Shown: positions 26,701-32,700 of the stretch, piece by piece
Position numbering within the stretch: the stretch's first letter is position 1
Layout of the letters: each line of letters opens with the position of its first letter
NCBI RefSeq assembly: GCF_017348835.2
Contig: NZ_CP071375.1
Length of the DNA stretch: 64,000 nt
From: Escherichia coli
GTDB taxonomy: Bacteria > Pseudomonadota > Gammaproteobacteria > Enterobacterales > Enterobacteriaceae
Reading direction: 5' to 3' (one strand)
Position numbers: made by a program

Positions 26701-29700
26701 TGATGGATTTCACCAGCAGGATAATGTTGGTACTGACTGATGGCGCTCTGGTCTGCGGCATTGTGGTATTGCTGTGGCCGATGATGAAAGAACAGAATGA
26801 ATAATTCTTGACTTTTTTGTTTACTGTTTATTAAAAAATCAACCGCATGGTGAATCCTCCTTGGAGGGGCTAAATGATCGAGTTTTAAGGGCACGTAGCG
26901 AGTTCTGTTTGATCATTGCAGAACTTAGCGGGAGGCGCCATGCGTACATCACTAGTGTTATTCCTTTTATCATTTTCCTTGTGAGTTCTGGCTGCGCATT
27001 GCGCAGCCTTTTTTTTATGACCTGCCACTGGCAGATGGTCATCCTGTGATTTGATTCCGCTTCCGCCGTCAGATGAACGAAGGCTGGTACCCGAACACGG
27101 CGATTGTGGGGCTGCAGGTGGATGCGGAGCAGTTTGGCGGTCAGCAGATGACGGTGAACTACCATATAAGTTCTGATTAGCCAGGTAACACAGTGTTATG
27201 ACAGCCCGCCGGTTCAGGCGGGCTTTTTTGTGGGGTGAATATGGCAGTAAAGATTTCAGGTGTACTGAAAGACGGCACAGGAAAACCGGTAGAGAACTGC
27301 ACCATTCAACTGAAAGCCAGACGGACCAGCAGCACGGTGGTGGTGAACACGGTGGCCTCTGAAAATCCGGATGAAGCCGGTCGTTACAGCATGGACGTTG
27401 AGTACGGTCAGTACAGAGTCATTCTGTTGGTGGAAGGATTCCCGCCGTCACATGCCGGGACCATCACCGTGTATGAAGATTCTCAACCCGGTACGCTGAA
27501 TGATTTTCTCGGTGCCATGTCGGAGGATGACGTCCGGCCGGAGGCACTGCGCCGTTTTGAACTGATGGTGGAAGAGGTGGCGCGTCACGCTGAGGAGGCG
27601 AAGAAGAATGCCGGAGAGGCGGAGACGTCAGCGAGGAATGCCGGCATATCAGCCAGTCAGGCAGAAGAGAGCGCTGCAAATGCTGACACTTCAGCAGGGG
27701 AGGCATCGGAGTCAGCCCGGCAGGCGGCAGAAAGTGCAGCCTCAGCAAAGCAGTCAGAGGATGCGTCCTCGTCCTCGGCTTCTGCGGCCGCTCAAAAAGC
27801 CAGTGAGTCATCACAAAGTGCAGCAGAAGCTGAATTGTCAAGAAAGACGGCAGAAAGTGCAGCCGGTAATGCAGCCAGGGATGCAACGACCGCAACAGAA
27901 AAAGCCCGGGAGTCAGCAGAAAGCGCACAGTCAGCGGAACAAAGCAGGATAGCGGCGGAAGAGGCCGTAAACCGAATCCCCACCGTGGTGGGACCTCCCG
28001 GGCCAAAGGGGGAACAGGGGCCCGCGGGTCCTCAGGGGCCGAAGGGTGATAAGGGAGAGCGCGGTGACACCGGCCCTGTCGGGGCAACCGGCGAACGGGG
28101 ACCGGCAGGTGATGCTGGTCCGGCAGGCCCGCAGGGGCCGAAAGGTGACATGGGAGAGCGGGGAGAGACCGGTCTGACGGGAAATGCAGGTCCACAGGGT
28201 CCAAAGGGAGATACCGGTGCGGCAGGCCCGGTGGGGGCAACCGGACCTCAGGGACCGAAGGGCGACCCGGGGGAGACACAAATACGGTTCCGTCTGGGGC
28301 CGGGAAACATTATTGAGACAAACAGCAATGGCTGGTTCCCGGATACAGATGGCGCACTCATCACCGGACTGACCTTTCTTGACCCCAAAGATGCCACACG
28401 GGTTCAGGGGTTTTTTCAGCATTTGCAGGTCAGGTTTGGTGACGGGCCGTGGCAGGATGTCAAGGGGCTGGATGAAGTGGGCAGTGATACAGGCAGAACA
28501 GGAGAATGACATGAATATACTAAAAAAACTTATGCAGCGTCTGTGTGGTTGCGGAAAGCATGATGGCCGTGAACACGTGCAGTCGCTTACAGCACAACTG
28601 CGACTGGGGCCGGCAGACATCCTGGAGTCAGATGAGAATGGCATTATTCCGGAGCAGGACAGGGTAATCACACAGGTGGTGATACTGGATACAGATAAAA
28701 AGCTGATACAGTGTGTGGTAAGACCGCTGCAAATCCTGCGTGCTGACGGGACGTGGGAAAATATTGGCGGGATGAAGTAACCCGACAGCTTCACAAAACC
28801 GGAGTCCGGCTCCGGTTTTTGTTGTCATGTCATGGTGATGTTTGTTAAGAAAGTAAAGATTGATTCATTTTGAAGGTTGAAATGTATGCTATCACCATCT
28901 TCTGTAAATTTGGGGTGTTCATGGAATTCTTTAACCAGAAACCTGACTTCTCCTGACAGTCGTATTTTATCCTCTGTAAGGGATGCAGCTGCTAGCTCGG
29001 ATAATGGGGCGCAAGTAAAGGTGGGCAACAGAACATATCGTGTTGTTGTCACTGATAATAAGTTTTGCGTTACAAGAGAAAGTCATAGTGGTTGCTTTAC
29101 TAATCTGTTGCACAGGCTGGGATGGCCTAAGGGAGAGATTAGCAGGAAAATTGAGGTGATGCTGAATTCATCGCCAGTGAATAGGGCTATGGAAAGAGGT
29201 GCTGTTCATTCGAATAGACCTGATTTACCTCCTGTTGATTATGCACCGCCAGAGTTACCGAGTGTGGACTATAACAGCTTGCCTGTGCCTGGTAATGTTA
29301 TTGGCAAAGGGGGTAACGCTGTAGTATATGAAGATGCTGAGGATGCAACAAAAGTCCTGAAGATGTTTACTACATCTCAAAGCAATGAAGAGGTAACAAA
29401 CGAAGTTCGTTGCTTCAACCAATATTATGGTGCCGGGAGTGCAGAAAAAATATATGGCGATAATGGCGATATTATTGGTATTAGAATGGATAAAATAAAT
29501 GGAGAATCGCTTTTAAATATTTCGTCCTTGCCGGCACAGGCTGAGCATGCCATTTATGATATGTTTGACAGGCTTGAGCAAAAAGGAATTCTTTTTATCG
29601 ATACAACAGAGACAAATGTCTTATATGATCGCACGAGAAATGAATTTAATCCAATAGATATATCATCTTATAATATTTCTGAACGTTCATGGAGTGAAAA

Positions 29701-32700
29701 TCAAATAATGCAATCTTATCATGGAGGAAAGCAAGATCTTATTAGTGTGGTATTAAGTAAAATTTAGTAATTTTATCCAGTGTAGTGGATTTGTTGCATG
29801 GATGGAGTTGGTAAAAAGTGGTGTGGCTGGCAATCCAGGCCGCGTCACAGAAATGGACAATGCCGCTGAGAGACTGGCGAATGGCATACAGGCACCAGAA
29901 AAATTTCAGACATGACATAATGCCCATGCCAGAAGTTCTTTTTGCACCTCGCCTGTATTTATAGATAAATATAGAGTGAATGAATGAGATATGAAAGACA
30001 TTACCCTTCCCCCCCCGACGTCCGCGTCCTGTCTGACAGGGGCCATATCTGTAAATACTGAAGCTGTATTATCTCCCATGCAACACACTTCAGCCTTACA
30101 TGTAAGAGATTTTGCTTCCCTGTGCTCACAGAACCTCAAAGCTAATGTATTGCTAAATAGTGATGACCACGAAGTACCTATACATCAGAAAAATCCTGCT
30201 GCAATAATGCAAAATATCGACTCTAACATCAAACAGATGGCAACAGACTGGGGGATGTCGATTGAGGAGGTTGAGGTTATTATAGGGCGAGAGAAAGGCA
30301 TTGTGGAACCCTCCTGCGGAGTTACCGCTAATGCTATTATGAAACTATTTCTGGACAAGGATGGCTTCAGTTACTGCTTTGAAAATGAACAGACACTATC
30401 GCTCGAGCAGCTTCAGGAGCGCCTGTCCTGTATGCCTGAATGTAAGAGCTTTGTATTACGTGTTAATGATGGTGCGCTTGGTCATGCTTACATTGTCGAT
30501 ATTCCCAAAGGAGAAAACTCTTGTCGTCCTGCATTCTTGTATCAGTCAGATTTAGGAGAGGGCGTCACCAGAAAGTTAAGATTTGAGGACTGGATGACGC
30601 ATAAAGCATTGACTCCGATTTTGCTGGATGATATTTGTAATTACTTCTCCTGCATGTCTCAAAATAAGACAGATTTGGAGCAGATTGCAACGTTATTTGA
30701 TATTGATGGAAATGTTAAAATGTTACGAAAGGAAAATATTCAATATCAAAAGCATGACAATTTTAGTTTCCAGTTGTTTGAGTATGACACCGATAATATT
30801 GAAAAAAACATTGAGATAATAAAATCACTATGTAGTTAGCTTTTGTTAAAACTGCAATTATTTGTAAACATAATAATAAGTATTATGACGTTAAAATTTA
30901 ACCATACGGTAAAATGATTCAGGAAAACCGGTTCAGCATAGCCTAGGCTGAACTTTTGAGGATATCAACGAACGGAATTTTTGAACATTTATGAGTAGAT
31001 CGTTGTTGAAGGGCTTCAATGAGCATGTCAAGTTCATCAACTGCTGGTCTACGATTACGACGGTTTGATTTACCAATCAAAGCAAGTTTAAGTAGATATG
31101 GACGAGCACTTTTCGCCGGGTTTGATGTGTAATTAATTCCGTATATAGGTTTGGCTGCATCCAGAACACTGCCAAGATAACTAACATCGTGACTGACTGT
31201 TGCTGGACCTGCACCAGCGTTGTTTCTCAGCCTGCAATGTTCAATTACGTCATTTTCTGTCAGTTCAGATAGTTTGATCGCGGAGATGTCACTATCCATA
31301 AGCAGTTCTAGCACATATCTTTTAGTACGGTCTGCTTTACCTCCGGCATTTGGTCATTTAAATATTTGTGTAGTAAGTCACGGACTGTAAGTCCGTCAAC
31401 AGCATTTGATGATGAAATGCCATATAGATCTAATACCATCACTTTCTGTGTGCCCCATGTTTTAGCATGAGCATGAACGCGGCGGCTATCTCACGGGTGA
31501 TCATCCCTTTGGCATACTGAAAAGTATCGGGTGTTACTGAACCGTGTTGATACATCAACTGCACTGGATATTGAGTGGCCGATAATACCGACGTTATAAC
31601 CTATAAATGCCAATCAGGCTGAATGTTGAAAGGATAGAATGAACAGCCCGACACACAAAAAACGGAGTCCGGCTCCGGTTTTTGTGTTGCCATATAAGGC
31701 AGATGTTTGTTACAGCTATTTAAGTCTGGAGTTCAAATTAAAATAGGGAGTTTTGTTATGCCATTAACCTCAGATATTGGATCACGTTCATTTAATCTTG
31801 GGCTGGAGGTTTTTCGTGCCCGAATTGCAGCCAATGGGCGCGGAGATATTACAGTAGGTGGTGAAACTGTCAGTATTGTGTATGATGCTACTAATGGGCG
31901 CTTTTCATCCAGTGGCGGTAATGACGGATTGCTTTCTGAGTTATTGATTTTGGGATTTAATAATGGTCCTCGAGCCCTTAGTGAGAGAATGCTAAGTATG
32001 CTTTCGGACTCAGGTGAAGCACAATCGCAAGAGAGTATTCAGGACAAAATATCTCAATGTAAGTTTCCTGTTAGTTCAGGAAATTTCCAGTGCCCGCCAG
32101 AGTCTATTCAGTGTCCAATTACACTAGAGAGACCCGAAGAAGGAGTGTTTGTCAAAAATTCAGATAGTTCAGCAGTATGCACTTTATTTGATGTTGATGC
32201 ACTTTCTCGCGTGGTTAATGACGGTTCAGTTCACCCTCTGACCGAGCTCCAATAACCCCATCAATGATTGTTAAACCAGAAGAGTGTAAATATGACCCTG
32301 CAAGGGGAAGCTTTATTATAAAAGATAGTTAAGATGTTTCAAATGAAACAATATTAACTTCCGATAATTTATATAATAACACCACAGGCATTCGGGGCCT
32401 GTGGTTGGTAAAACAATATAATACGCGAGTTATTTTTCATGAGCTGGAGAGAAAACAATCAAGGTAAGTAGTATTATTTCACAAAATACCGGGCACTTTC
32501 TGGTGCCGCATCGTTCAGAGCTTCGGTGTATAATGAATGAAATACGTAGTAACCCTGTAAAATTTCTGGAAGAGCATTTAATTCTTAATACACAGCGCTA
32601 TGCCCATCATGATGAGACATCTTTAATTACAGTTAATATTACAAGAGAGGATGGCTTGTTAAGACTAAAAGAAACGGAATATGATATGGCTGGTAGTGAT

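Follow-up and report, generated by a model that had tools for sequence, protein, structure and literature searches.

What does a short hairpin-containing repeat do in front of the effector genes of a prophage, and how did one prophage come to carry two of them? The question is raised by a 64,000-nucleotide stretch of DNA from Escherichia coli (contig NZ_CP071375.1 of RefSeq assembly GCF_017348835.2; "the window" denotes this whole stretch), in which an earlier note, made from the sequence alone, had pointed out two copies of a ~70-bp repeat upstream of nleH and of an nleG-like gene. The coordinates (28781-28849 for copy 1 and 31647-31715 for copy 2), the + strand and the two genes were all confirmed. 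The repeat, which we call the module, is very probably a known feature and not a new one. [quoted passage not shown]

Two copies in the window and the family to which they belong

The 23-mer CGGAGTCCGGCTCCGGTTTTTGT occurs exactly in both copies and, even with three mismatches allowed, at these two places only in the window; it had no match in 100 dinucleotide-preserving shuffles. The repeat search recovers both copies as blocks with a gap in between, one of 28 nt with 96% identity and one of 32 nt with 78%, which amounts to ~80% identity over ~69 nt with two small indels. The flanking motifs noticed earlier, cccgaca (at 28781 and 31647) and gatgtttgtta (28837-28847 and 31702-31712), are common to both. 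According to the gene calls, taken from the RefSeq annotation of the locus in the pig isolate E. coli PE164, which is 100% identical to the window, copy 1 begins at the base right after the stop codon of fibC, a 270-nt gene for a tail-fibre C-terminal domain (28511..28780, +; Pfam Phage_fiber_C, E=1.8e-34) that in phage 434 is annotated as "assembly chaperone"; the start codon of nleH lies 105 nt past this stop codon. Upstream of copy 2 there is a 27-codon 3' remnant of a tail-fibre-assembly (Tfa) gene, annotated as a pseudogene (31519..31599, +; Pfam Caudo_TAP, E=2.6e-9), which covers profile positions 103-130 of 131 and stops ~50 nt before the copy. Both copies sit behind the 3' end of a tail-fibre-related gene, intact for copy 1 and a stump for copy 2.

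Folding reveals in copy 1 a hairpin (28795..28819, +) with the arms AAAACCGGAG and CTCCGGTTTT and the loop TCCGG, which is a predicted intrinsic terminator as well as a candidate for a regulatory inverted repeat discussed below; its GC core (-10.1 kcal/mol) is followed by T5 (U5 in RNA; T-run at 28816-28820). The hairpin of copy 2 (31653..31687, +) is formed by ACACAAAAAACGGAG, TCCGG and CTCCGGTTTTTGTGT, with one A·G mismatch and a T-run at 31679-31683. The two copies had been described as sharing the same ccggag-tccgg-ctccgg stem-loop, which holds for copy 1; in copy 2 the 5' arm reads aaCGGAG instead of CCGGAG, and nothing but longer A/T extensions, which bring the arms to 15 nt with 93% complementarity, makes up for the C-G pair lost in this way. 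The folds of both copies are better than those of shuffled sequences on both strands (z -2.8 to -3.4), and at a permissive threshold Rfam returned no family at either copy. The hairpin is followed by a 3' block, which in copy 1 (28820..28847, +) the family alignment resolves into TGTTGTCATGT, six variable nucleotides and GATGTTTGTTA; it comprises a -35-like TTGTCA (28822-28827), 18 nt ending with TGt, and then TAAGAA. The corresponding block of copy 2 is GTGTTGCCATATAAGGCAGATGTTTGTTA (31684..31712, +), with the -35-like TTGCCA at 31687-31692.

The genome-wide search suggested in the earlier note found the module at 7,797 places in 707 of 5,426 complete E. coli genomes (median 12, maximum 17 per genome), the strains listed being O157:H7, O111, O26, O103, O145, O121, O55:H7 and animal isolates resembling enteropathogenic E. 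coli (EPEC). The module is also present in 297 phage records, nearly all of them from Shiga toxin (Stx)-converting or other E. coli lambdoid phages. The fibC gene has nearly the same distribution (697 of the 5,426 genomes, 7,210 places, median 11), on which ground we conclude that the module is tied to the fibC tail-fibre type, with almost 1:1 occurrence; the ~590 additional places of the module agree with copies in which fibC is largely gone. By the same token, the distribution does not separate a "tail-gene terminator" from an "effector element".

To characterize the surroundings of the module we used 129 copies with full flanks, mostly from an IMG/VR scan and the remainder from annotated phage and genome regions; these loci were fetched by an exact hairpin match and many are near-identical prophages, so the counts that follow are inflated and non-independent. 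The upstream neighbor is the 3' end of fibC or a truncated form of it in 122 copies, a copy-2 type of flank in six, and another phage gene fused by deletion in one. The downstream flanks fall into 27 unrelated sequence clusters, in which genes were classified with NCBIfam, Pfam, protein search and local tblastn. The first downstream gene is a co-directional T3SS effector in 96 of the 129 copies: NleG (49), EspS (11), NleB (10), NleH (10), NleL-like HECT ligase (8), NleC (7) and a WxxxE effector (1). With 12 more copies that face a convergent tccP-espJ pair, effector genes adjoin 108 of the 129, and the alternative that the repeat lies at random locations was not borne out. The remaining copies are followed by a 180-aa protein without family match (9), nothing recognizable (8), insertion sequence (IS) elements (3) or NleG on the opposite strand (1). 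The 180-aa protein (MKLILATRNYYLEYGLRLLL...; clusters D8/D15, e.g. locus L084, 5222-7721), for which neither Pfam nor NCBIfam gave a match, might be a regulator and not an effector, and for the cassettes D9 and D14 the NCBIfam, Pfam and tblastn classification gave no gene identity.

Among 100,044 species representatives, an exact 21-mer of the hairpin was found in a fibC/effector context only in E. albertii, plus one contaminant-like contig. This contig (SFGN01000239.1, 2.5 kb, from a "Lachnospiraceae" metagenome-assembled genome, MAG) contains the fibC 3' end, the hairpin module and the start of nleH, and is Escherichia prophage DNA, most likely mis-binned or a contaminant of the MAG. Three related Bacillota MAGs carry the identical 21-mer AACCGGAGTCCGGCTCCGGTT in an unrelated context, as an intergenic hairpin flanked by an A-run. 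The chance expectation for the 21-mer in the 298 Gb searched is ~0.1 matches, fewer than the Bacillota ones found, and these look like a convergent or lineage-specific terminator hairpin. We also considered a chromosomal extragenic repeat of the type of REP/BIME (repetitive extragenic palindrome/bacterial interspersed mosaic element) or ERIC (enterobacterial repetitive intergenic consensus), which is ruled out by the occurrence in only 707 of 5,426 genomes, the invariable prophage context and the absence of an Rfam match.

Hairpin, 3' block and the nle regulatory inverted repeat

Across the family, conservation is complete over the hairpin, high over the next ~28 nt (TGTTGTCATGT, the variable hexamer, GATGTTTGTTA) and then falls to background, and the two conserved parts can occur apart. 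When loci were anchored on the gene end, the hairpin was present at the 3' end of fibC in 130 of 130, and when they were anchored on the block, all 113 sites behind fibC contained a perfect inverted repeat. The 12 tccP-espJ prophages lack the 3' block and retain the hairpin, which there stands between the tail operon and the convergent effector genes; the block is absent where no co-directional gene follows. The reverse situation is found behind Tfa stumps, where some nleH genes retain the 3' block, the A-run and the T-run, and the GC core has been replaced. Because each part is found without the other, we read the hairpin as belonging to the tail operon, presumably as its terminator, and infer that the 3' block belongs to the co-directional effector gene, as its putative promoter region. 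Within the block the family preserves a -35-like TTGYCA, 18 nt ending with TGt, and then TA, the rest of the -10 region being variable.

Of the 14 block-containing sites behind Tfa stumps, five have one mismatch in the repeat and nine are without the canonical repeat. In three Tfa-linked copies (e.g. locus L122, 8307-8323, and L149) the GC core is replaced by the hairpin CTGGAG-TTAAT-TTCCAG, in which one C-G pair has become T-A, a compensatory change, and another has become G-T, a G-U wobble in RNA; in ten others (loci L022, L027, L137 and others) it is replaced by decayed, non-pairing sequence. A degenerate third version of the module, AAAAAAGGAGTGCATCTACGGTTTTT with a 3' block, follows a Tfa fragment in phage 2B8 (6037-6440 of the examined locus), ~500 nt upstream of the annotated espM2, and shows that the inverted repeat at internal cassette joints forms a continuum of decay.

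The anatomy and position of the hairpin are those of an intrinsic terminator. In both copies a stable GC-rich stem-loop precedes a U-tract, directly behind the fibC stop codon or the Tfa remnant, and elsewhere the hairpin lies between convergent fibC and tccP. The record of phage 434 (OL657226) annotates a predicted terminator of the same sequence family at the module site (21256-21280), between the tail-fibre chaperone gene and the nleB/nleC/nleH/nleD genes and fragments. In this record the fibC/hairpin module is followed by nleB (a pseudogene), nleC, a fragment of nleH, and nleD (3221-6868 of the examined locus), i.e. the textbook lambdoid phage 434 has a T3SS effector locus in its b region. 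The terminator features, the position at the end of the tail-fibre unit, the retention between convergent units and the compensating changes, including a G-U wobble, make it likely that the hairpin terminates transcription. The proposal of a bidirectional terminator thus agrees with the anatomy, with the prediction in phage 434 and with the convergent arrangement, and termination itself is likely on sequence grounds. The bidirectional terminators of lambdoid morons and late operons (e.g. those flanking lom) are likewise GC-rich stem-loops with an A-tract and a T-tract, placed directly after the last tail gene and before cargo expressed in lysogeny; unlike the module, such ordinary terminators do not form an invariant sequence with ~12 copies and are not reported as required for a downstream promoter. 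It had further been suggested that the hairpins insulate the cargo genes from phage late transcription. RNA polymerase modified by the antiterminator Q reads through intrinsic terminators, and for this reason insulation of the effector genes from true late transcription is doubtful, and we regard it as unlikely.

A second, positive role is suggested by earlier work on the same genes. A 2012 study in J Bacteriol by Garcia-Angulo and co-workers reportedly described, upstream of several nle genes, a strongly conserved stretch that contains an inverted repeat of 13 bp. Mutagenesis is said to have found the inverted repeat essential for transcriptional activation of nleH1 and nleB2, whose expression reportedly required neither Ler nor GrlA and was repressed by GrlR and H-NS. 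In strain E2348/69 the intergenic region of nleH1 comprises only 105 bp, copy 1 of the window is 100% identical to it, and the only inverted repeat in it is the module hairpin (perfect arms of 10 nt). Prophage PP4 of the same strain has one module copy before nleG and a second one before nleB2, the latter preceded by a ~110-bp fibC stump; the sole perfect inverted repeat upstream of nleB2 is ACAAAAACCGGAG/CTCCGGTTTTTGT, with 13-nt arms that are 100% complementary. Given that the nleH1 upstream region matches copy 1 without a difference and that upstream of nleB2 the hairpin is the sole perfect repeat, the module hairpin is very probably the published repeat. A review (PMC7142665) names this repeat at nleB2 as NRIR, for nle regulatory inverted repeat. 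Among the papers searched that cite the NRIR study, the NRIR sequence is reproduced nowhere and the motif is named in that review only. The NRIR is, like the module hairpin, a conserved inverted repeat upstream of a subset of non-LEE (locus of enterocyte effacement) effector genes, including nleH1 and nleB2, and the module indeed lies upstream of a subset of nle genes of attaching/effacing (A/E) pathogens, these two genes of E2348/69 among them.

The need for the repeat reported at nleH1 and nleB2 would imply a second, positive role of the hairpin just upstream of the -35-like hexamer. Such a role, which by sequence appears to be that of the NRIR, escaped the earlier note and would be the opposite of a pure insulator. 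To the NRIR, reportedly a positive regulatory site, the present analysis adds that the module has the anatomy of a terminator, that its place where the tail-fibre operon ends is fixed and that it is built of two parts.

Cassette exchange and competing explanations

The module also marks a junction in prophages that are mosaics. One upstream cluster is joined to 25 downstream clusters, and we counted 18 four-gamete quartets between pre-hairpin variants and variants in the block center, and one between the block center and the cassette, which indicates exchange on both sides of an invariant core. The notion of a boundary or recombination module is to this extent supported by the mosaic junction, with the correction that the position is set by the phage tail operon and not by the effector gene. 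We infer that exchange proceeds by ordinary homologous recombination over fibC and the hairpin. Elsewhere, internal copies carry tail-gene remnants of differing lengths, which suggests that every cassette initially occupied the place next to a tail operon and that its stacking behind other cargo came later.

The window appears to contain one such stacked cassette. A local tandem duplication of copy 1 is ruled out, since the identity of copy 1 amounts to 95-100% with copies in other prophages, against only ~80% with copy 2; copy 2 always occurs with the same nleG cassette and the same 2,863-bp spacing in other cif prophages. By its sequence, copy 2 is a diverged, Tfa-linked lineage of the module and not a local duplicate.

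Regions of this kind have been described as exchangeable effector loci (EELs; Tobe et al. 2006, as summarised in PMC8112680), i.e. clusters of effector genes of variable repertoire between the tail-fibre genes and attR of lambda-like prophages. The window locus nleH-cif-nleG-espJ beside ybhB qualifies as an EEL, its effector genes being located between tail-fibre genes and attR. As regards a moron, defined as a cargo gene bracketed by its own promoter and terminator, the locus has a hairpin and a promoter-like block upstream, and a simple scan detected neither a consensus promoter nor a terminator after each gene. EEL is the concept of a locus; the module is one particular sequence, which stands at the left edge of the locus and recurs where its internal cassettes are joined. 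The attB sites inside prophages that were described by Nakamura et al. 2021 (PMC8112680), which are 21-, 96- and 121-bp sequences from yecE, ykgJ/ecpE and ompW, are likewise short conserved sequences in effector regions that promote the accumulation of effector genes. Phage integrases use these sites, whose place is the far end of the EEL, and since they differ from the module in sequence and position, it is ruled out that the module is such a site.

The mechanism that we consider probable can be outlined as follows. The module would close the tail-fibre operon of effector-carrying lambdoid prophages in A/E Escherichia. Its hairpin would stop ordinary (not Q-modified) RNA polymerase leaving the tail-fibre genes, e.g. 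polymerase from lysogenic promoters such as those of lom or stf, and, at convergent tccP-espJ, polymerase arriving from the opposite side. The ~28-nt 3' block, TTGYCA-N18-TGtTA, may be the core of the effector promoter, a weak and non-consensus one of which the hairpin, as the NRIR, would also be the upstream cis-element. Recombination between prophages would have placed the nleG cassette behind nleH-cif, and copy 2 would have come in at that event together with a Tfa 3' end; with ~12 copies per genome the invariant hairpin of 25-30 bp and the adjacent tail-fibre gene could supply the homology for cargo exchange.

Several observations weigh against this explanation. In a simple scan, neither the window nor E2348/69 showed a consensus sigma-70 promoter in the interval from the hairpin to the start codons, and the proposed -10 element lacks the conserved final T; the missing consensus fits a promoter needing help. 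The terminator scan flagged copy 2 (on both strands), and did not flag copy 1 or the E2348/69 copies, probably because the T-run is consumed when A·T pairs lengthen the stem. The fibC-linked hairpin is invariant and therefore offers no covariation, the sole compensatory example coming from the three Tfa-linked copies. The Tfa-linked nleH genes that keep the 3' block with a decayed hairpin imply that the inverted repeat is not needed universally or that these genes are poorly expressed. The redundancy of the 129 loci counts here too.

An extension of the favored explanation would have one hairpin do three jobs, as the terminator of the tail-fibre genes, as a cis-element of effector promoters and as a "universal joint" for swapping and stacking cassettes. 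The ~12 identical copies per cell would then represent patches of about the minimal identity required for a RecA/Red crossover, and each internal cassette would still have the stump of the tail gene that it once followed. We regard this as a tentative idea with perhaps a minor chance of being right; if true, it would provide a sequence-level mechanism for the exchangeability of EELs.

It is unlikely that the module is a terminator or insulator only, with no positive role in effector expression, and that its resemblance to the NRIR is coincidental or the NRIR is another sequence. Such a limitation would agree well with the canonical anatomy and the phage 434 annotation, with a hairpin that always stands behind fibC whatever comes next and is kept without the 3' block between convergent units, and with its decay in some internal copies behind dead tail-gene remnants. 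It is at odds with the finding that in E2348/69 no inverted repeat other than the module hairpin exists in the 105-bp nleH1 region or upstream of nleB2, where the review (PMC7142665) and, reportedly, the 2012 study place an inverted repeat essential for activation. The read-through by Q-modified polymerase also deprives a mere insulator of late transcription as its likely target.

We find it similarly improbable that the module is purely a DNA operator, i.e. a palindrome (the NRIR) that binds a dimeric activator, has an incidental terminator look and causes no termination in vivo. The perfect dyad symmetry and the absolute invariance over hundreds of copies go beyond the needs of a terminator, the palindrome lies directly upstream of the -35-like hexamer, and the dependence of activation on it is mentioned in the review (PMC7142665). 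An operator, however, would not explain why the hairpin is kept where no co-directional gene or 3' block follows, nor the flanking A-tract and T-tract, which are features of terminators. The variant hairpin with a compensatory T-A pair and a G-U wobble also argues against it, as G-U wobble pairs exist only in RNA, and the Bacillota lineage with the same 21-mer as an intergenic hairpin points to a generic stable stem.

Very little speaks for a 5'-UTR (untranslated region) element, in which effector transcripts would start inside the tail-fibre gene and the stem-loop would act as an attenuator or stabilizer of the mRNA 5' end. Stem-loops at the 5' end can protect mRNAs from RNase E, and there is no consensus promoter downstream of the hairpin; yet a hairpin with a U-tract within the transcript would terminate rather than stabilize it, the last 100 nt of fibC contain no evident promoter-like site, the conserved 3' block has the spacing of a -35 and an extended -10 element, and what the 2012 study reportedly described was activation of transcription. 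Finally, a site-specific recombination site (similar to integron attC or phage att) with a recombinase cutting at the ...GTTA boundary is extremely improbable, since, despite the sharp fall of homology past GATGTTTGTTA in many cassettes, the resemblance of GTTA to the integron core GTTRRRY and the degraded integrase-like gene adjoining copy 2, the right boundary is graded (the nleH, nleB2 and EspS cassettes share 7-20 nt more beyond GTTA), the left junctions are variable and hold tail-gene remnants of different lengths, as is typical where recombination is general or illegitimate, there is no inverse core site, an intact recombinase is not consistently linked, the likeness to an integrase stays under the cut-off (Int_N, E=0.071), and the known prophage-internal attB sites of EELs are different, chromosome-derived sequences (PMC8112680).

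The prophage in the window and the meaning of the module

The host of the window prophage is an EPEC-like E. coli. The prophage is degraded, lambdoid and ~21 kb long, and occupies the lambda attachment region between ybhC and ybhB-bioA. Its left part has the order int, xis, cIII, kil, a cI-like repressor gene, cro, cII, the nin genes and Q; the lysis genes, the head genes and most tail genes have been deleted. Next come the side tail-fibre gene, the 270-nt fibC, nleH, cif, a recombinase-like pseudogene and the 81-bp tail-fibre-assembly pseudogene, and after these nleG (frameshifted), two hypothetical genes, espJ (frameshifted, opposite strand) and ybhB. The side tail-fibre gene (stf; 27241..28509, +; annotation and Pfam phage_tail_N, Collagen and Phage_fiber_C) is among the last genes of the late (tail) operon of the prophage. 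The first cargo gene after copy 1 is nleH, which encodes a T3SS effector kinase (28886-29767, +; annotation, with NCBIfam NleH on family members), and the second is the T3SS effector gene cif (29991..30839, +; annotation). The cargo after copy 2 is the frameshifted pseudogene of the nleG family (DUF1076) at 31758-32332 (+; annotation), whose assignment was made with Pfam T3SS_NleG on homologous cassettes and local tblastn.

Other features of the neighborhood were noticed in passing. The frameshifted and truncated pseudogene at 30949..31475 (-; annotation), between cif and the Tfa stump, forms the left part of the imported second segment; its similarity to the N-terminus of phage integrases is only marginal (Pfam Int_N, below the cut-off), and it may be what remains of an element by which the second cassette was brought in. 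A weak Rfam match to IS009, a candidate intergenic small RNA of E. coli, at 31474-31559 (+; 29.9 bits against a gathering threshold of 117, E=3e-4) overlaps with the Tfa remnant, and tfa sequence common to prophages, not an RNA gene, is its probable source. A separate, strong terminator-like hairpin, AGCCCGCCGGTTCAGGCGGGCT followed by T7, lies at 27203-27224 (+), directly 5' of the side tail-fibre gene; its position agrees with that of a terminator annotated after lom in phage 434. Q is intact (24944-25633, +) and, with the lysis genes, the head genes and most tail genes deleted, is located no more than ~1.6 kb upstream of the tail-fibre gene. As further cargo the prophage carries, in the interval from the nin region to Q, a gene of the lpxR family of lipid A deacylases (~23511-24470, -).

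While our findings entail no major change to the current understanding, they place the module at the point where, in the prophages of enterohaemorrhagic E. coli (EHEC) and EPEC, the phage structural genes end and the virulence cargo directed at the host begins. Recognition of the hairpin as the apparent NRIR with terminator anatomy can guide its annotation at ~12 sites per pathogenic genome. It also raises the question how one hairpin could end one transcript and yet be required to start the next, i.e. whether it would act as a DNA operator or through an RNA or DNA structure. The tail-gene stumps beside internal copies, in turn, provide a simple marker for reconstructing how the effector repertoires of these pathogens were assembled.

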